Positions 3,639-37,447 of a stretch of DNA of 64,000 bases are shown in pieces (position 1 is the stretch's first letter; the number at the start of each line of letters is the position of its first letter). The notes under the pieces were generated by a model, which made no database searches, was not told the origin of the DNA, and worked only from the letters and a program-made list of their open reading frames with translations. This DNA comes from a virus. The position numbers and the translations under genes were made by a program. Location: positions 3,945 to 67,944 of the IMG/VR virus record IMGVR_UViG_3300033182_000489, one strand, 5' to 3'.

Positions 3639-4010
3639 TCAAGGTTTCGGGACTTCCAGCCATACCCCGGCTCGGACTTCCTTCTTCTGGATGTTGTCGT
3701 CCATCGTCGTCTCGTCCACCTTCGGCCACTGGAAGTAGTCGGGGTGCTTCTGAGCGAGAGCGGTCAAACGCTCCTGTGACACCTGGTCCATGGTGGGGAG
3801 CAGGTCGAAGTACTGGCGTCGAGCCACGGGGTTGTTGCGGACGGTCCACAGAATGAACTCGTCCTCCAGCACAGCAGGGTTGCCGGGGTACTTGACCCGC
3901 ACCACGCGCCCATCCGGCAGCGTCTCAAGAGTGGTCGGACCGCCTTGCAGTCCGTTCACCTGCGCTGCGCCGAACGTCCAGAATCCGTAGGGCTGTGCTT
4001 GCTGTGCCAT
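3639..4010 (-). CDS. Hypothetical protein
   Basis: GGAGG RBS; class B motif upstream. Confidence 0.7.
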   Translation of the reverse strand: MAQQAQPYGFWTFGAAQVNGLQGGPTTLETLPDGRVVRVKYPGNPAVLEDEFILWTVRNNPVARRQYFDLLPTMDQVSQERLTALAQKHPDYFQWPKVDETTMDDNIQKKEVRAGVWLEVPKP

Positions 4011-7189: not shown

Positions 7190-7855
7190 CTACGACTTCT
7201 TCTTGCGGAGGGCCTTGAGGGCGGATGCAGCGTCATCCAGCCCACCAGCATCAGCAGAGGAGTCGGACTTGACTGTGAGGTTTTCTGTGTCAGACCTGAC
7301 AATACCCGTGGGAATGAACAAGGGCTCCTCGGGCCCGTTGACCACGAGGTCTGTAGGTGACGAGGCTGAGGATGCGGGGGCGATCTGGGCCGTCCGCAGG
7401 GCTTGTGACACGGCCTGCTGGACCACCTCCTCGATGCCCGCCGTAGGAGCGGCGCTGGGCGCGGCGTTCGCCAGGAGCGTCTGCATCTGCGAGGTCATAG
7501 CAGCGATGGCCTGTGCAGCGGCCTCGGTGGCGGCCTTCTCGACCATCGCCTGAGCCTGCTCCGCTGTGACCCCCTCCTTGACCACTTCTTTGGTCGTGTG
7601 GTGGACCGTGTTGTGGCGAGGCACCTTGCTCGGACGGGACAGCCCAACCGTGTGGATCTTCGGCTTGTTTGGGGGGTCTTGAGACACTCGGCACCTCTGG
7701 CTGGAGGATACCCGCACCTTCCCCAGCCTTATGAGGGTCTGGAGACAGGCGGATCGCTTGAAGTCCTCCTGTTCGATCCACACCGGACCTGGCCCGACGG
7801 TGATCCCGAGGTCTTCGATGGGGGTTGGTTTGTCGGCATCCACTCGCAACGGCAT
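7190..7855 (-). CDS. Hypothetical protein (candidate actin partner)
   Basis: Coupled upstream of the actin gene; Ala-rich linker, C-terminal LDDAASALKALRKKKS. Confidence 0.65.
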   Translation of the reverse strand: MPLRVDADKPTPIEDLGITVGPGPVWIEQEDFKRSACLQTLIRLGKVRVSSSQRCRVSQDPPNKPKIHTVGLSRPSKVPRHNTVHHTTKEVVKEGVTAEQAQAMVEKAATEAAAQAIAAMTSQMQTLLANAAPSAAPTAGIEEVVQQAVSQALRTAQIAPASSASSPTDLVVNGPEEPLFIPTGIVRSDTENLTVKSDSSADAGGLDDAASALKALRKKKS

Positions 7856-8762: not shown

Positions 8763-9089
8763 TCAGTGCTCGCCTTCGCCCAGGATGGCGAACGTGGGAG
8801 TCCCTTCCCCCACCCATGCGCCCGACGTGTTGAAGCCGAACCAGTCACGAGCCGCGTCGAAGTCGCAGTCCAGCCACTTCATGATGGCCTCCAGGCACTT
8901 GTCGATGTCGTAGACGGCGACGTGGACGCGAGCCTGGCGGGGCCAACTGTCGTTGGGGTCATCCGTGACCCCGATCAGGGCAGGGTCGTAGACCTCACGA
9001 GGCTCCAGGAGCATCGCGTTGGGATTCAGTGTCTCCAACTCCCGTAGGACTTCCTCGACGCTCACGACCCGCTCCTTGCTATGCGCCAT
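8763..9089 (-). CDS. Phage hypothetical protein
   Basis: DPALIG..AVYD..ARDWFGFNTSGAWVGEGTPTF, a pattern recalled from phage hypothetical proteins. Confidence 0.75.
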   Translation of the reverse strand: MAHSKERVVSVEEVLRELETLNPNAMLLEPREVYDPALIGVTDDPNDSWPRQARVHVAVYDIDKCLEAIMKWLDCDFDAARDWFGFNTSGAWVGEGTPTFAILGEGEH

Positions 9090-9096
9090 CCTACCC

Positions 9097-10047
9097 TCAG
9101 CACCACAACCGACACACCTGTGTGCCCTTGTCGAGCACCTGGAGGAGATGTGCGATGGCGAACCCGCTCTTGATCTCGTCGCCGGAGTACCTGAGCACGG
9201 TGTAGCCCATGTCGTACATCGCCAACGCCGTTGCTTCGTCGTCCGCCATCTTCACGGCGGGGTCGCCGTGGACGGCTCCTGGACCGTGGAACGCCACGCC
9301 GTCGCACAGCACGATAGCCTTGCTTGACCCCATGACGACCTTGATGTCGGCTTCCCGGCGGACCTTCTTCCCACCGACAGTCACGGTCATCCACTCGTTA
9401 CGACCACACGGCTCGACACCGCAGTCCCGCATCTGCTCCACGAACAGCCGCTCCAGACCGCTGCCGAGGCGGGCCTTCTCCCGGTTCTTGCGGGCAGTCC
9501 TCACCCTCCGCTTCCTCACCCTCCGCTTGTACTTGTCCTCGCTGCCGACCACCTGCACGACGAGTTCTCGCGCTGCGGTGTAGTCGAGTCCTGTGGCCAT
9601 GAGGTCACGGACACCACCACCGCTGGCGATGATGTCCGCCGCACTCTGTAGATGTTCCACGGGGTCAATCTTGGGCTTGTAGCCCACAGGCCACCGCGCC
9701 TTGCTGTTCCCGCACTTGGAGTGGGTGCGAGGGTCAGGCGTCTTGTCGAAGCGAAGTGCCTCGTACTTCCGCTTGCTCATGGTCTGCCGCAGCCGCTCAC
9801 ACCGAGGACATCGCTTGGAGTCCTTCAACCGCTTGTCGGTGATCTCAAACAGGTCACCGCACTTCCGGCACCGCAGGGTCGCCCGGTACTCGGCTCGCCA
9901 TGCGTGCCATCGTGCCTTGAAGGCTCGGTGTGCCTCGTCGGGGTTGTGCCTCTCCGAGAGGTGTAGACCGAGGGCGTTGTAGTTGCGGCTCACCTTCCCG
10001 CAGACCTCGCATGGTCCGAGGAAGGGAAGGGTATGGTCGTCCTGCAT
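9097..10047 (-). CDS. Zn-finger + Vsr/DUF559-like endonuclease (free-standing homing endonuclease candidate)
   Basis: C2H2 finger CEVC..HLSERH, CRKC..CPRC, C-terminal ADI..CDGVAFHG..D..GYTVLRY; ATG 10047 chosen by homology with the 24740 gene start. Confidence 0.75.
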   Translation of the reverse strand: MQDDHTLPFLGPCEVCGKVSRNYNALGLHLSERHNPDEAHRAFKARWHAWRAEYRATLRCRKCGDLFEITDKRLKDSKRCPRCERLRQTMSKRKYEALRFDKTPDPRTHSKCGNSKARWPVGYKPKIDPVEHLQSAADIIASGGGVRDLMATGLDYTAARELVVQVVGSEDKYKRRVRKRRVRTARKNREKARLGSGLERLFVEQMRDCGVEPCGRNEWMTVTVGGKKVRREADIKVVMGSSKAIVLCDGVAFHGPGAVHGDPAVKMADDEATALAMYDMGYTVLRYSGDEIKSGFAIAHLLQVLDKGTQVCRLWC

Positions 10048-10135
10048 GGTGAACCTCTGGTACAGGTTTGCTTTGCAGGAGGTCGGGTGTTGCAGCACTC
10101 GGCCTCCACCCTTCTGGGATCATAGGATCACTACC
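10027..10135 (-). repeat. Endonuclease-associated leader element, copy 1 (includes class B motif 10122-10135)
   Basis: Co-linear with 24720-24832; see findings. Confidence 0.75.
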
Positions 10136-10140
10136 GGGGG

Positions 10141-12255
10141 CTACTTCTTGCCGCCTCCAGCACCATACTGAATATGCTGCCACACGGGAGTCCTGCCCCT
10201 TTGTTCCCTTCCATCGGGAATCTTGGCAGCCTCGGACATCATCGGGGTTGCTTGATGCGAGTAGCCAACCGGGTACGGCTCGGCGTCCTCGCACGGTGCG
10301 TCTTCGGGGTTGCTGTAGCGGGTCTCAGGCCACGGGAGGCGTTCCAACTCGCCCATAGGCACCCGGTAGCGGATGTCGCCCGTGTCCAGGTAGCCGATGG
10401 CGAACGCTTGCTGGAGGATCAACCCACGCACCTGGGTCCGGCGCACAGGGCCTACAGCGTACCGCTCACCGTTCTGCTTCACGATGAAGTCCCGCTGGGA
10501 GAGCATCGGGGTCGGCCCGATCCAGACCTCGTACTGGTGCTCCAGTCGTCGTCCGTTGGGGGTCTGGGTCACGCGCCGGTCTGCGTCGTCCGGGGCGATG
10601 ATGATGTCGATGGGCCCCTCGTAGCCTCCCACGAACCCGGTGCCGTAGCACTCCAGACAGGTGTTGGAAGGCTGCTGGCTGTACTCTTGCAGCCGCTCGT
10701 CCCACACGCAGTCGCACTTGACCCCGGTGACCCTGCGGAGGAACAACTTCACACGCTCCCCACCCTGCTCCAGAATCCAGCGGTTCCGGCGCACAGCCTC
10801 ACGCCAGATGTAGTCGAACCGCTCGCTGTTCATCGGCGAGATGGGCTCGGTGTACCCCAGCGGAGTCTCGATCAGTCCGGTCGGACTCTCGCCCGTGGGG
10901 TCAATGGCGACCGTGGTGAGGCGGTAGAAGACCTTGTGTCGCTGGTCCAGGGTGTTGACCAGGGTGTCTCCCCGCTTCCAGTAGTAGTTGATGGTGACCA
11001 CGCTCGTCGCCGTGGGGGCGGTGAACGTGACCCACGACTCGGTGCTCGGATCCCACACCGGGGTCGTGTCGAGCGTGACCTGGCCGTTGGGGCCGAACAC
11101 GGCGGCCACGGGGGTCCGTGATCCGTCGATGTAGACCTCGACGTCGAAGGGTGAGTCAGCGGCGACGGCGTTCCCGGTGCGCTTGACCATGGGCCGATTT
11201 CTCGTCTGGAGCCGCCACACGTCCTTCTGGTTGGGGGCAGAGCCTCGGTAGATCCAGCCTGTGTCCCATGGGATCACCTCGCCGGTCGTCTCCACGATGT
11301 CCGTGCGGTCCCGGTAGAAGTTCGTCATCACCGGGATGCGGTTGACCCGGAAGTACGGGCCGCGCTCTCCGGTGTCGCTGCGGTAGACGTTGACCCCGAG
11401 GATCTGCCACTCGCTGTTGGACTTCCCCTCGCAGGGGACGCCTGTGCCGCCGGTCGTCTGAGAGTCGCTGAGGTCGAACGCCGTGGTGTTCGTCGTGGTG
11501 ATGGTGATCCCATCACCCATCGTCCCGTCCTGGAACGCGGCGATCAGCACGATGTCGCCGGACACCGTGGCCGACACGAAGCCCAGGTCGTTGGTGCTGT
11601 CGTTGATGGCAGCAGCGATGCTCTCGGCGGTGTTGAAGTTGGTCGGACCGACGCCGAAGTTCATCCCGCCCGCTGTCCGGGCCGCCTCGGCGGTCAGTAC
11701 CTGTCCGCCGATGGTCAGCGTGTCTGCGTCGAGGCCACCAGTGAAGGTGCTCCCGGATGCCGTGATCCTGTCGCTGTCGGACGACAGTGTGATCCCATCG
11801 CCGACCTCGCCCGGCGTGTCCGCCGTGAGAGAAATCACATTGAGCGCCGCCGTGGCTGAGGCGATGCCCCATGCTCCGACCGATCCGCTGTTGATGGCGT
11901 TGGCGATGTTGGCGGCTACGACTGCTGTGTCTCCAGAGGAGCCGTCGAACTCGTCGGGGCCGGGCGCTGCCGCCACCGACGTGAGCACGACACCGCCAAC
12001 CTCAATGGTGTCCCCCACAGCGATGGGAGCACCAGAGAGGGTGAACGTGGCCGTGGAGGCGGTGAGGACATCAGGGATGCCCGTCACCGTGATGGACACC
12101 GTGGCCCTCGTGGAGGGCGTAGACGGACCTGTCATCAGGGTCGAGGGGTCATCCCAACGGATGTCCGCATCGGACCCATGGAAAGAGGACATCGCCGTGC
12201 CGTTGGCCGGGGGCCACGGGAATGAACCCGATACTGGTTCCCAGCCAGCCGACAT
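10141..12255 (-). CDS. Virion structural protein (neck/head-completion-like)
   Basis: T/G/A-rich beta repeats; C-terminal WILEQGGERVKLFLRR..CDC..CLECYGTGFVGGY. Confidence 0.7.
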   Translation of the reverse strand: MSAGWEPVSGSFPWPPANGTAMSSFHGSDADIRWDDPSTLMTGPSTPSTRATVSITVTGIPDVLTASTATFTLSGAPIAVGDTIEVGGVVLTSVAAAPGPDEFDGSSGDTAVVAANIANAINSGSVGAWGIASATAALNVISLTADTPGEVGDGITLSSDSDRITASGSTFTGGLDADTLTIGGQVLTAEAARTAGGMNFGVGPTNFNTAESIAAAINDSTNDLGFVSATVSGDIVLIAAFQDGTMGDGITITTTNTTAFDLSDSQTTGGTGVPCEGKSNSEWQILGVNVYRSDTGERGPYFRVNRIPVMTNFYRDRTDIVETTGEVIPWDTGWIYRGSAPNQKDVWRLQTRNRPMVKRTGNAVAADSPFDVEVYIDGSRTPVAAVFGPNGQVTLDTTPVWDPSTESWVTFTAPTATSVVTINYYWKRGDTLVNTLDQRHKVFYRLTTVAIDPTGESPTGLIETPLGYTEPISPMNSERFDYIWREAVRRNRWILEQGGERVKLFLRRVTGVKCDCVWDERLQEYSQQPSNTCLECYGTGFVGGYEGPIDIIIAPDDADRRVTQTPNGRRLEHQYEVWIGPTPMLSQRDFIVKQNGERYAVGPVRRTQVRGLILQQAFAIGYLDTGDIRYRVPMGELERLPWPETRYSNPEDAPCEDAEPYPVGYSHQATPMMSEAAKIPDGREQRGRTPVWQHIQYGAGGGKK

Positions 12256-12565: not shown

Positions 12566-12613
12566 GAGAAATGTCTCCTTTGGGGTTCCTCACACACTAC
12601 CCCGCCGATGCCG

Positions 12614-13453
12614 CTACTCCACCGCAGCCGCAGCGATCTGCATGGCTTCCCAATCCTGCTCCCACCCACGCGGACGCTTGCCGAGACGCCCGATGTAGAG
12701 CACCTCAGCCTTCGCGGGGTTGAACGAGCGGAAGGGGAAGCCCTCGGCGCACTGGTCCTGGGACGCACGCTGCTGGGCGAGGATGGAGAAGTAGAAGCCG
12801 TTGGCTCCGACCGCAGCCACGAAGACGTAGCCCGAGTAGTAGTTGAGGCTCCGCATCTGGCCACGAGCCTCACCGCGAGCGATGTACTCGGCAGCAATCT
12901 GCTTCTGCTCCTTGGGCGGCTTACGGCTGGGGTCAGACTTGTAGATGATCTCGATGGGGCCGTAGCCCTTCATCTTGGAGTAGTCGGTCGCCTTGTACAT
13001 GCCGACGTAGCGGGAACGCTGGGCGTTGGGGAACACGACCTCCTCGCTGCCGAACGCGACGGTGACCGGGGAGCCCTTGCTGCCGTCGCCTTCGTCCACG
13101 ACGATGCCGATGCGGCGGTCGTTGTCCCGGTAGACCTCGATGCCGTCGCCCTTGTGCTTCTCAGCCTTGATGCAGACGCGGTAGCCCTTCTGCCAGCGGG
13201 GGCCGGGCTTCTTCGACTTCTCGCCACCGACGCGGATGCCCAGACCCTTGATGAAGCCTTCGACCTCCTTCACGGGGATGGGGTTGCCCTCTTGAGAGGA
13301 GAGGATGTAGGACGCGAACACACCAGCATCGCCAGCGGCCTCCTTGTCGAACGCGGCCTTCTCCAGAAGGACGGTACGCTCGGAGGAGTTCTCGGGGAGC
13401 AGGTAGGCCAGCCGGGTCATGGCTGCGCGATGGGCATCGGTGAGTGCGGGCAT
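12614..13453 (-). CDS. Hypothetical protein (possible internal head protein)
   Basis: 279 aa, class B motif upstream. Confidence 0.7.
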   Translation of the reverse strand: MPALTDAHRAAMTRLAYLLPENSSERTVLLEKAAFDKEAAGDAGVFASYILSSQEGNPIPVKEVEGFIKGLGIRVGGEKSKKPGPRWQKGYRVCIKAEKHKGDGIEVYRDNDRRIGIVVDEGDGSKGSPVTVAFGSEEVVFPNAQRSRYVGMYKATDYSKMKGYGPIEIIYKSDPSRKPPKEQKQIAAEYIARGEARGQMRSLNYYSGYVFVAAVGANGFYFSILAQQRASQDQCAEGFPFRSFNPAKAEVLYIGRLGKRPRGWEQDWEAMQIAAAAVE

Positions 13454-16908: not shown

Positions 16909-17220
16909 TCAATGCGCGTCGGGGTGGTGTGGATGTGGGAAGGGGATGACGTTGGACCCCTCACAACGAGGGGCCTCTATGGAGTGACGGGAGCCGGATT
17001 CCGCTCCAACCAGAGGGGGCGAAAAAACCGGCTGCGCCCGGTGCCACGCATCGAACGCAGCACACAGATGGATGACCCAGCCGAACAGCCCGAACGAGAC
17101 CGCCCAGGTGAACAGGGCGAGCAGTCCGAAGTAGACCGCCCGGCCCGGTCGCCCGGTGAGCAGTTGGCCGAGGCCGGGGAGGAACAGGGAGCAGACCCCA
17201 GCGGAAGCGGGATCAAGCAC
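16909..17220 (-). CDS. Small membrane protein (TM2-like)
   Basis: SLFLPGLGQLLTGR..hydrophobic..AAFDAW. Confidence 0.6.
   Translation of the reverse strand: MLDPASAGVCSLFLPGLGQLLTGRPGRAVYFGLLALFTWAVSFGLFGWVIHLCAAFDAWHRAQPVFSPPLVGAESGSRHSIEAPRCEGSNVIPFPHPHHPDAH
16987..17012 (-). promoter_or_regulatory. Class A (early-like) motif TGGTTGGAGCG-N11-CCGT
   Basis: TGGTTGGAGCG GAATCCGGCTC CCGT upstream of the WGR-ligase unit. Confidence 0.7.
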
Positions 17221-17815: not shown

Positions 17816-17872
17816 GGTGTCTCCGTTGGCCCCATGGGGGCGCGGGTGAAGGGAAGGGGTCTCACAGTAGGT

Positions 17873-17979
17873 ACGGGAACCGAGCGCCGCTCCAACCACC
17901 GAGGGCGAAAAAACATTTCTGTCCGGGCATTTCGGACTTTTCGGAGGGTCGCTTGGTTGGAGCGTCGGTGGGCTTCCGT
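17873..17979. promoter_or_regulatory. Divergent pair of class A motifs (17873-17898 minus; 17954-17979 plus)
   Basis: Both TGGTTGGAGCG-N11-CCGT, pointing outward. Confidence 0.75.
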
Positions 17980-22947: not shown

Positions 22948-23169
22948 ATGGCCACCTCCAACTGTCTCGTCTGTGGACGTCCCTACGCCTACTACGACGG
23001 CAACCCCTCCCACTTCTGCTCCGTGGCCTGTGCGTTGGACGCGGGGCCCGTCAAGGACACGCTCGTCCGATTGAGAGACGAACGGACCCGTGCGGCAAAG
23101 GTTGCCCGAGCCGTCGTGGACGTCGAGAGCGCGGTGCCCCAGCCTTCGACGGAGAAGAAGGATCAGTAG
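22948..23169 (+). CDS. Small Zn-finger protein
   Basis: CLVC..FCSVAC. Confidence 0.6.
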   Translation: MATSNCLVCGRPYAYYDGNPSHFCSVACALDAGPVKDTLVRLRDERTRAAKVARAVVDVESAVPQPSTEKKDQ

Positions 23170-23178
23170 AGTGGCTAT
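23165..23178 (+). promoter_or_regulatory. Class B motif variant
   Basis: AGTAG AGTGG CTAT. Confidence 0.55.
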
Positions 23179-23202
23179 GAACCCACCATCACAGGAGGGA
23201 AC

Positions 23203-23679
23203 ATGACCCCAGACCCCAAACGTATCGCCCGCCGCCACGTCAACGCCGCCTTTGACATCGCCACCTACATCGAGGAGGAGAAGGAGAAGGCGCTCAAGAG
23301 CATTGACGGGAAGATCCGGCGTCATCTGGCGAAGGTCATCACGGACACCTTCAAGGCTCAGTTCCCCCTCTGGGAAATGTTCGACCTGGATTTTGATGTC
23401 TATGAGGAGTCCTATGAGCGCGACAGGCTGGCCATCACCGCCTCAGTGCGGCTGAAAGATGACGCCTTTGTCCGCCGCTACTTCAAGGCGGATCGGGACG
23501 AAGGGGACTACGCTGACTTCATGTATGTGTGGGGTTGGCACAAGGAGATGAAGCGCATGGGGGAGTGGCTCCAGAGCATCGGGTACTCAGACATCAGCGA
23601 CATCGACTACCGCCACCTCTTGGACCCCGATGACGGGACGATCCGCATCAACATCGGGCGCTACCCGTGGCTCCAGTGA
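23203..23679 (+). CDS. Hypothetical protein (possible internal head protein)
   Basis: AGGAGG RBS; MTPDPKRIARRH. Confidence 0.7.
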   Translation: MTPDPKRIARRHVNAAFDIATYIEEEKEKALKSIDGKIRRHLAKVITDTFKAQFPLWEMFDLDFDVYEESYERDRLAITASVRLKDDAFVRRYFKADRDEGDYADFMYVWGWHKEMKRMGEWLQSIGYSDISDIDYRHLLDPDDGTIRINIGRYPWLQ

Positions 23680-23702
23680 CGCATGGCGAGTGAGTACTGG
23701 GT

Positions 23703-24740
23703 CTACGTCTTGGGGGGCCTCCAGCCCACAGGATCAGCCACCCACGGGTGATTGACCCCCTCACCACGACACAGGGGTGAGTCCTCTGGCGTCCAGTGGC
23801 ACCGCGCCTTCCCGCGCTTCGACCGCTTGAGTTTGTACTCGGCCTTGAGGGCTTCGGAGCGACTGTAGTACGGGCCGTAGCAGGCTCGGGCGACCCACGG
23901 ACGGTGCTTGGAAGTCCACTTTCCTCCTCCCTTCTTGCCCATCTTGCCGTTCGCGTAGCGCCCGTTGTGCTCGCGGAGCCGTCGTGCGGGGCAAGTGGTC
24001 ATCCCGACATAGTAGTAGCCGGGGAGGACTCGACCCGTCTTTTTGGACACCCGCTTCTGCTCTGACTGGATCACATAGACGTAGAACGGCTTGACCCACT
24101 TCTCTTTCGTCTTTGTGTTGAGGTTCTTCGGGTCGTCCATGTTCTCCTCGATGATCCTGTACTCCGCAGCGACCGCTTCGGCTTCCGTGTCACACTCCAC
24201 CAGTACCCGCCATGTGGCGGTGCTCCAGTCCTGACCGTTGAGGGCCTTCACATGCGTCCCATGCCGTGCGGCGTGACGGTGCTGGTGGAACCGCCGCTTC
24301 GGGTTGTTCGACTTGCCGATGTAGTAGCAGCCGTCCGCGAAGTCGATGCGGTACACCTGTGGACGCTTCTCGGCCTCCCTTCTGGCTCTCTTGGCGTCCT
24401 TCCCACGCTCGACGGTGGCACGAACCCGGTCAGGGTGTTTGCGCCTGTACTCCCTCTGGTGCTCCCTCATGTAGTCGCGCCGCTTGACGCGAATCCGCTC
24501 TTTGTTCGCTTCCCTGTACGCCCGACCATAGGCAGCCGTCCGAGCCTTATTCGCTTCCCTGTAGGCTTTCAGACAAGCCTTGCAGTAGACCTGCAAGCCA
24601 TCAGAAGTTGTGCGGTTGCGGTTGTACTCGGAGAGGGGTTTGTCCTCGCCGCACTTGCGACAGGTCTTCGTCGTCGGGGCAGCGGGTTCGTACTCGACCC
24701 CGAACAGATCGAACACATCAAGGGTATGGTCATCCAGCAT
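23703..24740 (-). CDS. Zn-finger + tandem GIY-YIG endonuclease
   Basis: KTCRKC..YCKAC; VYRI..YYIGKS..RRFHQH; YVYVIQS..YVGMT..RRLREHNG..WTSKHRPW..ALKAE (Slx1/UPF0213-like). Confidence 0.88.
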   Translation of the reverse strand: MLDDHTLDVFDLFGVEYEPAAPTTKTCRKCGEDKPLSEYNRNRTTSDGLQVYCKACLKAYREANKARTAAYGRAYREANKERIRVKRRDYMREHQREYRRKHPDRVRATVERGKDAKRARREAEKRPQVYRIDFADGCYYIGKSNNPKRRFHQHRHAARHGTHVKALNGQDWSTATWRVLVECDTEAEAVAAEYRIIEENMDDPKNLNTKTKEKWVKPFYVYVIQSEQKRVSKKTGRVLPGYYYVGMTTCPARRLREHNGRYANGKMGKKGGGKWTSKHRPWVARACYGPYYSRSEALKAEYKLKRSKRGKARCHWTPEDSPLCRGEGVNHPWVADPVGWRPPKT

Positions 24741-24832
24741 CGCTTACCTCTGCTACAGGTAGTGGTGTCAGAGACGGCGGGGTGTTGGCGCACCTCGTCG
24801 TCTCGCCCTACCGGACGCATAGGCTGGCTACC
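24720..24832 (-). repeat. Endonuclease-associated leader element, copy 2 (includes class B motif 24819-24832)
   Basis: Co-linear with 10027-10135. Confidence 0.75.
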
Positions 24833-31676: not shown

Positions 31677-31737
31677 GGGTGGGTGCTCCGTTGGCCGCTG
31701 GGCGGCACTGGGTGTGGGGAGGGTCTCTCGTATAGGT

Positions 31738-31875
31738 ACGGGAACCGAGCGCCGCTCCAACCACCGGAGGCGAAAAACTTCCAAAACCCGCATAGGACGG
31801 GCGTTCTCGGGGGGATTTCTTCCGTGACCCCGAAAAAGTTGAGGTCATCTGGTTGGAGCGTGATCCGGCGTCCGT
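31738..31875. promoter_or_regulatory. Divergent pair of class A motifs (31738-31763 minus; 31850-31875 plus)
   Basis: Same layout as 17873-17979; 31733-31766 is identical to 17868-17901 (34 bp). Confidence 0.75.
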
Positions 31876-35007: not shown

Positions 35008-35514
35008 TCACGGCTCCCCCCCATCTGCGGGGACGCCCTCACTGCGGGGAGGGAAGAACCGAAGCACATTGGCCTCGATCTCCTCGTCCGTCATCTGACC
35101 GATTTCGGCAGCGATCTGGTTGCCGATGTACTTGGTAGCCATGATGCGGGCGTCGGGCTTGGGTTCGGTGTCCTTCATGGCTTGCCACTCCTCGCGGGTC
35201 ATGCCCGTAGTTACCCGCCTGCCCCCACTCAACTCGTCGCTCTCCAGCGCCCGCGTGAAGTTTGCCCACGACTGCGCTTCCTCCCGCGCCTCGCTGGCCG
35301 ACACGGGAACCACCGTCGCGCCCCACGCCAGCGCCCGCTCCCGCGTCTCGGGCACGGTCTGCCGCTGGAGCATGTCCAGCAGCCACGCCCGCTCCTCATC
35401 AGTCAACGTCGGCCACAACTCCTGGATGGCTGCCTGCACCTCGCGGTAGACGCCCAAGGAGCGGAAGTGGCTGTAGCGGATGGCGCACAGCAGGGTGGTG
35501 GTGATGGCGGTCAT
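35008..35514 (-). CDS. Hypothetical protein
   Basis: ATGA overlap in the accessory array. Confidence 0.55.
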   Translation of the reverse strand: MTAITTTLLCAIRYSHFRSLGVYREVQAAIQELWPTLTDEERAWLLDMLQRQTVPETRERALAWGATVVPVSASEAREEAQSWANFTRALESDELSGGRRVTTGMTREEWQAMKDTEPKPDARIMATKYIGNQIAAEIGQMTDEEIEANVLRFFPPRSEGVPADGGEP

Positions 35515-35885
35515 GGCGCAGCCTCCAGCGCAGCCACGAGGGCTTCGGCCTCGGTGTCAAAGTAGGCCCACAGGGTCCAAGGCCGATAAACGAGGCTGCC
35601 GCTTTCCCATGCCTCCCGAACTTGCGCCAGCAGCACGCCCAGGGTCGCCGGGTCGCGGAAGTCGGGCCACCAGCCCGAACCTTTTGCGGGCCAGCCCCAA
35701 GACGGCGTCATCTGATGACCGCCCGCAGACATGACAGGGCACCACTCGCCCTCGTGGTCGTACCAGAAGCAGAGGCGGTGCTCCTTTGGGTCGGAGCCGT
35801 CGTACATCGCGAGCACCCCCGCCGCCCACCGGAACCCCGCCTTAAGCGCCCGCAGCCCAAACGCCTTCGCTTCGTCGTCGGTCAT
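35511..35885 (-). CDS. PD..D.ATLG.LL-family hypothetical protein, paralog 1
   Basis: PDFRDPATLGVLLAQVREAW..TEAEALVAALEAAP. Confidence 0.75.
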   Translation of the reverse strand: MTDDEAKAFGLRALKAGFRWAAGVLAMYDGSDPKEHRLCFWYDHEGEWCPVMSAGGHQMTPSWGWPAKGSGWWPDFRDPATLGVLLAQVREAWESGSLVYRPWTLWAYFDTEAEALVAALEAAP

Positions 35886-36529
35886 TCCGCAGCCTCCAGC
35901 GCGGCCACGAGGGCTTGACGGGCAGCGACCCAGGCGGCGGCCTCGGCGGCCTCCTCGGCGGCCCTAGCGGCCTCCTTGGCGACCCAGGCGGCCTCCTCGG
36001 CGGCGGCCTCGGCGGCCCCCCTGGCGGCCCTAGCGGCGGCCCAGGCGGCGACCCAGGCGGCCCCCTCGGCGGCCCTAGCGGCCTCCTTGGCGACCCAGGC
36101 GGCGGCCTCGGCGGCGGCCTCGGCGGCCCTGGCGGCGGTCCTGGCGGATACATCATCAATCACCGGCTCCAGCGCCCGGAGCGTTGCGGCTTCGCCGCGT
36201 AGACCCGCCGACTCCAGCGCCAGGGGCGCAACCACCCTGGCGGCGTGGTCGGCCAGAACGTAAGCGCGGGCCTGCTCGGCCTTCGGCGTCGAGTGCGACC
36301 CCACCAGCATAGGGGCGAGGTCGTGCAGATAGCGCGCCCGCAGCGCATCCCCTTCGGGGCCGAAGCCCATTGCATCGTTAAGGGCCGCCGCATACGCGGT
36401 CAGCACCGGACAAGCGCAGGCTGGCGCGTCGGTGTGGGGCTCTCCTGCCAGATATGCCACGGCTTCCATGAGGCACGTCCCATCCTCGCGGGTGGCGTGC
36501 GGCCCGTAAGTCAGTGTGTAGTCAGTCAT
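35882..36529 (-). CDS. Hypothetical protein with Ala-rich repeats
   Basis: CLMEAVAYLAGEPHTDAPACACPVL; AARAAEAAA repeats; ends ALVAALEAAE. Confidence 0.75.
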   Translation of the reverse strand: MTDYTLTYGPHATREDGTCLMEAVAYLAGEPHTDAPACACPVLTAYAAALNDAMGFGPEGDALRARYLHDLAPMLVGSHSTPKAEQARAYVLADHAARVVAPLALESAGLRGEAATLRALEPVIDDVSARTAARAAEAAAEAAAWVAKEAARAAEGAAWVAAWAAARAARGAAEAAAEEAAWVAKEAARAAEEAAEAAAWVAARQALVAALEAAE

Positions 36530-36930
36530 TCCGCAGCCTCCAGCGCAGCCACAAGAGCGGCGGCTTCGGTGTGGTCAGATTGCAAGGACGTGCCCACAAC
36601 TCGCCAGCCATGCACGCCGCCCTCAGTCAGCAGAGGCTGGCAGGTCAGCCAGTCGCAACCCCATGCCTCCCGCACCAGCCCGAGCAGGCAGCCCAGCGTC
36701 GCGCCGTCGTCCAGGTCGGGCAGGTCTGCCTCCCAATCATCCGTCATCTCGTCCAGGCGCAAGCCGGTATCCAAAGACAGCATCCCAGGCTCCCAGCGCC
36801 AGTGTCGGCAGGCGACGGCTCGTTTTGCAAGTTCATTCATCACTCGGTCATCTCGGTCACAAGTACACTCCTGCTCCAAAGGGCCGGAGTCATAGCCCGC
36901 GTCACAGCGAGCGCATTTGTACCACTTCAT
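36526..36930 (-). CDS. PD..D.ATLG.LL-family hypothetical protein, paralog 2
   Basis: ELAKRAVACRHWRWEPGML..PDLDDGATLGCLLGLVREAW..ALVAALEAAE. Confidence 0.75.
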   Translation of the reverse strand: MKWYKCARCDAGYDSGPLEQECTCDRDDRVMNELAKRAVACRHWRWEPGMLSLDTGLRLDEMTDDWEADLPDLDDGATLGCLLGLVREAWGCDWLTCQPLLTEGGVHGWRVVGTSLQSDHTEAAALVAALEAAE

Positions 36931-37094
36931 TCTTCCTCTGCTTCCACGGGTTCCGCGCCGGTCCCCTTGCAGGTCTTCGCCATGTAGGGTTCGCGGTTGC
37001 GGGTCATTATTGAGTGTCCTGCGATGACGCCGTGCCGCGTCAACGGCAGTCGCGCCCCGCAGGCGGGACATGTTCCTTTCTTATTCTTGCTCAT
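36927..37094 (-). CDS. Small Zn-ribbon protein
   Basis: CPACG..GH..CKGTG. Confidence 0.55.
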   Translation of the reverse strand: MSKNKKGTCPACGARLPLTRHGVIAGHSIMTRNREPYMAKTCKGTGAEPVEAEEE

Positions 37095-37447
37095 GGCGCA
37101 GCCTCCAGTGCGGCGACGAGCACCGCAGCGTAACTCTCGTGTCGAGTCTGCCGCTTGCGGGACGGCGGGTCGATGACCCACGCCCCAAGCGCCTCGCCGT
37201 CCAGGCAGGTCGGAAGCCACGCTGGATCGAGCCGTGCGAGCCGCACCAGCGCGAGCAGACAGCCCAGCGTGGCGGGGTCTTCGAGGTCGGGGGTTGCCCC
37301 CGCTGGGACAACCGTATGCCCGCCCTGAGTCCGCCACACACGGTCGCAGGCTACAGAATCTCCATCCTCATCGACCACCAAAGGCAGCATCCCCGGCATC
37401 CACCGCCAGCCTGGACAGGCTACGGCGCGTTTTGCAAGTTCAGTCAT
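37091..37447 (-). CDS. PD..D.ATLG.LL-family hypothetical protein, paralog 3
   Basis: ELAKRAVACPGWRWMPGML..PDLEDPATLGCLLALVR..VLVAALEAAP. Confidence 0.75.
   Translation of the reverse strand: MTELAKRAVACPGWRWMPGMLPLVVDEDGDSVACDRVWRTQGGHTVVPAGATPDLEDPATLGCLLALVRLARLDPAWLPTCLDGEALGAWVIDPPSRKRQTRHESYAAVLVAALEAAP

Follow-up and report, generated by a model that had tools for sequence, protein, structure and literature searches.

The closest described counterparts of the element treated here are antisense RNAs encoded across from their own targets. In phage P22, sar is a cis-antisense RNA of about 70 nucleotides (nt) that forms two hairpins and has its promoter in the first codons of its target, the gene of an antirepressor; in the P22 record the sar promoter lies inside ant, the sar RNA stops on its 5' side one base short of the ant ATG, and the terminator is the long hairpin. 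Expression has been reported for a Sar homologue from a high-GC Mycobacterium prophage region (PMC6582537). SymR of Escherichia coli overlaps the ribosome-binding site and start codon of symE, a mutation in the symR promoter raises SymE seven-fold, and the protein whose translation SymR blocks was at first described as nuclease-like (PMC4147584). The SymR promoter lies within coding sequence (PMC1891008). Here we compare with these RNAs, and with the Rfam family PtaRNA1, two leaders (copies A and B) that stand before two unrelated genes, one for a GIY-YIG nuclease and the other for a possible DUF559-type nuclease, in a 64,000-nt stretch of phage DNA, hereafter the window (positions 3,945 to 67,944 of the IMG/VR record IMGVR_UViG_3300033182_000489). 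The phage that carries both cassettes is high in GC and uncultured; its record is an IMG/VR virus of 67.9 kb, with a CheckV completeness estimate of 16%.

Free-standing homing endonucleases are selfish genes that must not harm their carrier, and to our knowledge their restraint is known for only a few T4 genes. If unrelated nucleases carried a self-contained antisense RNA with them, this would be a general, portable form of such restraint. We put at roughly 0.7 the probability that this is what the window contains, namely that each cassette comprises a portable sar/SymR-type cis-antisense RNA gene travelling with a homing-endonuclease cassette.

Cassette layout and the strand that carries the structure

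The two leaders are collinear on the minus strand (10140-10020 and 24832-24713), with a mean column identity of 78% over 170 columns that include unrelated flanks. Read in the sense direction, each cassette runs from GGTAG-N5-CTAT through about 14 nt ending in AGGG to a long hairpin, then through about 10 nt to ACCTGTAnCAGAGGT, which contains the Shine-Dalgarno sequence in both, and from there through 5 nt to ATGCnGGAnGACCATACCCTT. The stems of the long hairpin differ between A and B on the sense strand, and its apex GTGCnnCAACAC is retained. Within the window ACCTGTANCAGAGGT occurs exactly twice (0.27 expected) and ATGCNGGANGACCATACCCTT twice (0.01 expected). The cassette itself is present in two copies in the entire record, both directly 3' of a stop codon. 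The preliminary description of this DNA, which drew on the letters of the window, had proposed two collinear minus-strand leaders with changed stems and a kept loop, shared by two unrelated reading frames; alignment, motif counts and the record-wide copy count bear it out on all these points. The covariance-model search that it recommended, run without filters, found A and B and no further copies in the window. The parts of the two cassettes are as follows, in window positions (ORF, open reading frame).

9097-10047, minus strand: ORF A, a translation of 316 amino acids that starts MQDDHTL
10032-10037, plus strand: -10-like box TATGGT of copy A, in codons 4-6 (D-H-T) of ORF A, 7 nt before CAT
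10045-10111, plus strand: predicted sar/SymR-like antisense RNA of copy A, its 5' end opposite the start codon of ORF A
10053-10067 (core), plus strand: hairpin 1 of copy A, covering the Shine-Dalgarno region
10078-10107, plus strand: hairpin 2 of copy A, antisense apex GUGUUGCAGCAC
10122-10135, minus strand: GGTAG-N5-CTAT upstream of cassette A
23703-24740, minus strand: ORF B, a GIY-YIG nuclease of 345 amino acids that starts MLDDHTL
24725-24730, plus strand: -10-like box TATGGT of copy B, in codons 4-6 of ORF B, 7 nt before CAT
24738-24808, plus strand: predicted sar/SymR-like antisense RNA of copy B
24746-24760 (core), plus strand: hairpin 1 of copy B
24771-24804, plus strand: hairpin 2 of copy B, antisense apex GUGUUGGCGCAC
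24819-24832, minus strand: GGTAG-N5-CTAT upstream of cassette B, its TAG being the stop codon of the Baseplate_J gene

To which strand does the structure belong? Over the interval between the start-codon complement and the far end of the long hairpin, the plus strand of copy A reaches -33.1 kcal/mol (z -3.44; 1/200 shuffles) and that of copy B -38.3 kcal/mol (z -5.14; 0/200 shuffles), each as two clean hairpins, as compared with -20.2 kcal/mol (z -1.0) and -24.0 kcal/mol (z -1.6) for the same intervals on the sense strand. The plus strand folds better because what are A.C mismatches on the sense strand become G.U pairs there. Nor do the 121-nt sense leaders stand out (z -1.33 and -1.10); the sense strand folds neither beyond chance nor better than the strand opposite. 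Of 45 distinct elements from this and other loci, 43 are more stable on the antisense strand and 43 form two hairpins there; SymR as annotated and P22 sar likewise form two hairpins, with z-scores of -5.28 and -5.26. The conserved structure belongs to the plus strand, antisense to the nucleases. It had been assigned to a sense-strand leader, an assignment that the z-scores, the asymmetry between G.U and A.C and the 43 of 45 elements all go against. The pairing of AGGG with CCCT, put forward as a closure over the start codon, is present in the minimum-energy sense fold of copy A and absent from that of copy B, so that this suggestion holds for one copy of the two.

Covariation, wobble asymmetry and shared first codons in relatives

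A scan of viral contigs for the apex returned at least 119 stretches. Among the matches listed, 43 of 114 distinct apex sites are flanked by at least six Watson-Crick pairs, in 32 distinct arms; when the flanks were permuted (200 permutations), the mean number of sites with at least six pairs was 7.7 and the maximum 17. Read as sense strand, the stems of these viral sites contain 41 A.C against 11 G.T oppositions (p 3.6e-5), and counted per distinct arm the excess is of A.C in 18 and of G.T in 2, with 12 ties. An excess of A.C over G.T on the sense strand means that the wobbles can pair on the antisense strand alone. Bacterial genomes gave 26 hairpins in 120 sites among the matches listed, with 18 A.C against 5 G.T; they stand before integrase-like ORFs, for example, in Kitasatospora, Streptomyces and others.

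Compensatory change was counted in 13 elements aligned with MAFFT, without the copies of the window; three of the 13 rows, although poorly aligned at their 5' ends, stayed in the count. This alignment was used for the pair counts because the automatic alignments of our covariance model R1 (built from six phage copies only, copy A among its seed members) misplace hairpin 1 where loop lengths differ. Paired cells amount to 89.8%, as against 76.2% after shuffling, and none of 500 shuffles reached 89.8%; slid controls came to 33-50%. Both sides have changed in 13 of 19 pairs. Covariation supports the conserved structure on the antisense strand, and the proposal of a conserved RNA module with changed stems is supported by these 13 relatives and by the strand asymmetry of the wobbles.

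The first codons of the two nuclease genes carry a second conserved feature. Among the matches listed, we considered 43 distinct sites whose ORF starts 18-62 nt after the apex; in 22 of them TANNNT ends 2-9 nt before CAT, as compared with 2, 2, 0, 1 and 4 in control windows of equal size deeper in the ORF. A search for the Shine-Dalgarno-hairpin pattern gave six viral matches, five of them by chance and the sixth, L007, a homologue and the sole relative. In L007 the sequence AAGGGTATCGT is kept while the protein start changes to MLPYDTL; since the box persists despite changed residues, the constraint acts on DNA. We take MxDDHTL to be common to A and B because the -10 box of a predicted antisense promoter is embedded in codons 4-6, and, judged from these sequences, the peptide is a by-product of that promoter. 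Neither a protein motif nor a closing helix accounts for the shared start, which the -10-like TATGGT explains.

The apex hairpin was also met in settings that differ from that of the window, and these are recorded here as observations in their own right. One viral locus, L091, has two copies of the module (895-953 and 7780-7849), the second with the variant apex GGUGGUGACACACC, and the apex is thus not strictly invariant. Mu-like phages have the module too: it stands before Mu Com-like zinc-ribbon translational regulators in L035 and L052, and before a MuB-like protein in L047. In L084, L101 and L038 the hairpin opens a structured leader of about 130 nt and lies about 100-120 nt upstream of an ORF whose N-terminus resembles, by eye, Dam-type adenine methylases; the leader of L040 is similar. 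In L046 (1118-1260), L093, L057, L041, L108 and L134 it sits inside larger closed stems, a different RNA context, and some of these have G.T instead of A.C on the 'sense' strand. Finally, in an AT-rich viral locus (L105, 1545-1801, minus strand) it falls within a sub-threshold match to BsrG (RF01412; 42.3 bits, gathering threshold 55), another type I toxin locus.

Mobility, nuclease genes and the GGTAG-N5-CTAT motif

Contigs of related phages, from metagenomes of different studies (X1, X2 and X4), lack the following stretches, which have no strand of their own.

9071-10260: absent from relatives' contigs; covers nuclease A and its leader as well as the 3' end of the gene upstream
23710-24825: skipped in a relative's contig; spans nuclease B and its leader

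The joint from 9070 to 10261, where 105 different letters stand instead of the missing stretch, occurs in one contig each of X1, X2 and X4, and the joint from 23709 to 24826 in one contig of run X2. Each cassette is thereby present or absent at the same site between close relatives. A further relative, G001 (stretch L021; compared by blastn and tblastx), is homologous to the window only from 24837 to about 23696 and has another upstream flank, with a baseplate-J-like 3' end inverted downstream; it has one copy of the cassette only. From the relatives' contigs and the flank in G001 it follows that the leader moves together with the ORF, and the portability suggested in the preliminary description is upheld by relatives that lack nuclease and leader together and by one that keeps them next to a different upstream flank.

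Other changes were seen nearby. In a relative's contig from X4, 19 letters replace 23148-23690, which includes a plus-strand ORF (23203-23679; 158 amino acids, no family match); insertions and deletions are concentrated in this space, which separates the GIY-YIG gene from the structural gene that follows. The 279-amino-acid gene at 12614-13453 is an equal-length allelic replacement, in that relatives in X1, X2 and X4 have about 830 unlike letters in place of 12610-13450. At 35886-36173 and 35501-37291 there is a dense periodic repeat array with 9-, 12- and 21-nt periods, and four genes have the same junction sequence (families D1, D2, D4 and D6).

ORF A and ORF B are unrelated proteins. ORF B contains a homing-endonuclease-family domain, GIY-YIG, in two matched stretches (Pfam GIY-YIG, 1.8e-17). 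ORF A has no significant match in Pfam, PHROG, NCBIfam or PDB; its N-terminal part is zinc-ribbon-like (a weak match), and its C-terminal part, for which the ESM Atlas gives a feature score of 0.93 with a DUF559 cluster, may be a DUF559/Vsr-like nuclease, an assignment that was made more firmly at first and is now a lead. Among the 66 window ORFs scanned there is one GIY-YIG gene (ORF B), no HNH gene and one SNase-type nuclease, which is without the module; the two module-bearing genes are the sole homing-endonuclease-like genes among them. Neither resembles the AbrB-fold toxin SymE as a target, ORF B being a GIY-YIG protein and ORF A having no SymE match. Each gene was said to follow a virion gene. 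This is so for ORF B, preceded by Baseplate_J; the 704-amino-acid gene upstream of ORF A has no informative match. A group I intron was considered for the cassettes and rejected, there being no Rfam intron match and the upstream genes ending in stop codons; in the case of copy B, a plus-strand ORF, not intron RNA, comes after ORF B.

The GGTAG-N5-CTAT that opens each cassette has 12 exact copies in the window, as compared with 0.04 expected (683, 4035, 5486(+), 10122, 13488, 14105, 14180, 24819, 29496, 33043(+), 41721 and 59355), oriented with downstream genes. It had been counted as part of the nuclease module. As a general phage motif, it probably represents the phage's own promoter class and would serve as the sense promoter of the cassettes. 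Two dispersed intergenic repeat families elsewhere in the window (D8 and D15/D19; 16969-17028, 17855-17914 and 31720-31779, and 17953, 31849, 32315 and 33902) have the core GGTTGGAGC in common and may form a second promoter or leader class.

Proposed mechanism, competing readings and known systems

How might such a cassette work? We infer that a plus-strand promoter, its -10 box TATGGT placed in nuclease codons 4-6, would give rise to an RNA of about 65-70 nt whose 5' end would lie at or beside the complement of the start codon. Hairpin 1 of this RNA would be complementary to the Shine-Dalgarno region; hairpin 2, whose long stem carries the conserved apex GGUGUUGNCGCACC, would terminate the RNA just short of GGTAG-N5-CTAT. 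Base-paired to the nuclease mRNA at its 5' end, the antisense RNA would keep ribosomes from binding, and the nuclease would be produced only when transcription of the sense strand, whether it starts at GGTAG-N5-CTAT or reads through from the structural gene, outruns the antisense RNA. The mobile unit would consist of the sense promoter motif, the antisense gene, the first seven codons and the nuclease ORF, such that one predicted regulatory head serves two unrelated nuclease bodies. That the module restrains the nucleases, as first surmised, is plausible by analogy with SymR and sar, in that the antisense RNA would lie over the ribosome site.

Comparison with covariance models places the two copies near named families. 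A permissive Rfam scan aligned copy B (24736-24807, plus strand) to the full symR model (RF01809) with 34.2 bits, the gathering threshold being 61 (E 6e-5 for a 351-nt search), and matched PtaRNA1 (RF01811) on its antisense strand with 24.9 bits, the threshold being 47. Elsewhere, antisense matches include symR in L028 (42.7 bits) and PtaRNA1 in L058 (27.9 bits), and L103, which has an apex of the window type upstream of an Ant homologue, matches sar with 43.8 bits (gathering 43). Model R1 scores 65.7 bits on copy A, itself a seed member, and 27.3 bits on annotated SymR, as compared with 16-17 for apex-only matches. A second model, R2, which was built without the window copies, ranks copy B first (23.6 bits, E 0.0016). 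The module had not been recognised as a named family; it has named relatives in sar (RF00262), symR and PtaRNA1. As it fails the thresholds of all three, we count it as a variant and not as a member. A gathering-level Rfam scan of the window gave no match, nor did the region or either leader, used as queries, match anything in phage databases.

Several results weigh against a sar/SymR-type antisense gene, in its kinship, its targets or its transcript. No Rfam score in the window reaches gathering; at E<=10, copy A matches none of sar, symR and PtaRNA1, and sar (gathering 43 bits) matches around neither copy. R1 does not find P22 sar, and R2 finds neither SymR nor sar and ranks copy A third (14.2 bits, E 0.24), a weak independent support. 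The apex served as bait in collecting most of the comparison loci, and the apex match itself is therefore there by construction. The downstream ORFs are of several kinds: among the 31 scanned (the window's two and 29 viral ones, among the matches listed), at least nine are HNH or GIY-YIG proteins, with PHROGs HNH in seven, Pfam HNH_3 in six and GIY-YIG in two, and other targets include Ant (two), Com (two), an integrase, MuB and several small unknown proteins. Nucleases are consequently frequent but not exclusive targets, and the preliminary question of whether the module consistently precedes nuclease genes receives a divided answer. In A and B no U-run comes after hairpin 2, unlike in the low-GC relatives L010, L014 and L012, which have one. 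No consistent -35 element accompanies the predicted antisense promoter, and by eye the plus strand has neither an inverted GGTAG-N5-CTAT nor a shared -35. The mirror-image sense leader forms hairpins as well and could also act.

This last point leads to the competing view, that of the preliminary description, in which the leader is a structured mRNA element acting in cis as a translational operator, its sense hairpins hiding the ribosome-binding site or binding a repressor, perhaps the nuclease itself. T4-type homing endonuclease genes such as I-TevI and mobE have hairpins that hide the ribosome-binding site, together with late promoters, and in A and B the Shine-Dalgarno sequence indeed lies within a small sense-strand hairpin. 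The mirror structure is of necessity present in the mRNA, and target loops matter in antisense systems too. We nevertheless consider this view unlikely, given that sense folds do no better than their shuffles, that the sense-strand A.C mismatches turn into G.U on the other strand, and that the closure of AGGG on CCCT is missing from the minimum-energy fold of copy B; it also leaves unexplained the conservation of codons 4-7 at the nucleotide level and the -10-like box at a fixed distance.

Alternatively, the element might act at the level of DNA or as a transcription boundary, either terminating the structural gene upstream or serving recombination or landing, for the exchange of nuclease ORFs, with no regulatory RNA. 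Its position right after a stop codon in both copies would fit this, as would the indel boundaries that adjoin it and the T-runs that follow some apex hairpins in sense orientation elsewhere (L099, L105 and L068). In A and B, however, no T-run follows the sense-strand hairpin; strand-asymmetric wobbles and covariation indicate RNA, not DNA; the fixed -10-like box and start-codon distance have no place in such an account; and the experimentally studied relatives, sar and SymR, are RNAs. We judge this explanation less likely still than a cis-acting leader. Chance resemblance, or a recent local duplication without function, would agree with the presence of only two copies in the record, and is nonetheless highly improbable in light of motif counts far above those of shuffles, pairing that is kept though the stems differ, and homologous and analogous elements in many unrelated viral and bacterial loci.

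If the antisense-gene interpretation is extended beyond the window, sar, SymR, PtaRNA1 and the nuclease leaders could be branches of one very widespread superfamily of portable antisense 'safety-catch' genes, carried by phages, prophages and other mobile elements and united by the nearly invariant apex GGUGUUGNCGCACC, which persists although every stem differs. This extension is tentative, and we think it somewhat likelier to fail than to hold. The nearly invariant loop would then be a specific recognition element, either a fast kissing or U-turn loop or the site of a conserved host factor. The module would be exchanged as a whole among toxic or selfish genes that are not related to one another, chiefly homing endonucleases, and such genes could then land in new genomes without killing them. 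It would also connect two textbook antisense RNAs, sar and SymR, that are kept apart in databases, with L103 (shared apex; sar score at Rfam's threshold) as the bridge to sar. A literature search (most subscription journals lie outside its coverage) found no paper linking sar/SymR-type RNAs to homing endonucleases, and one review only that names sar and SymR together. In practice, the module could serve as a compact expression brake, and annotators of phage nuclease genes would do well to read 'structured leaders' on both strands.

Among the known systems, SymR/symE has the layout of the cassettes. In E. coli K-12 the sense strand runs from a hairpin that has this apex core through 11 nt to a Shine-Dalgarno hairpin, and on through 5 nt to ATG; the annotated start of SymR lies opposite codon 2, which puts its promoter within the first symE codons. 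The two systems are thus collinear, with an identical apex core and an antisense -10 box in the first codons. They differ in the target, which in E. coli is SymE, of AbrB fold, and in the sense promoter, which is LexA-controlled there, whereas here it would be a phage motif and the setting is a homing-endonuclease cassette. P22 sar follows the same plan as copies A and B at the sequence level, with an apex that is a variant of the window apex; its target is an antirepressor, while those of A and B are nuclease genes in a lytic-looking structural region. For PtaRNA1, the whole model was matched, and its hairpin 1 (ACCUCU...AGGU, anti-Shine-Dalgarno) aligns with hairpin 1 of copy B, although the apex of its second hairpin is different.

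Two further systems are comparable in their logic. In IS10, RNA-OUT and RNA-IN exemplify a mobile element's own antisense RNA that lies over the ribosome site of a potentially harmful enzyme; the control would be analogous to that of the cassettes, while enzyme class and structure differ. The T4-type genes and cassettes A and B have in common free-standing nucleases, located after structural or essential genes, whose translation is restrained, or in A and B would be. The T4-type genes do so by cis-acting structures of the mRNA, whereas in cassettes A and B the conserved fold is on the opposite strand.

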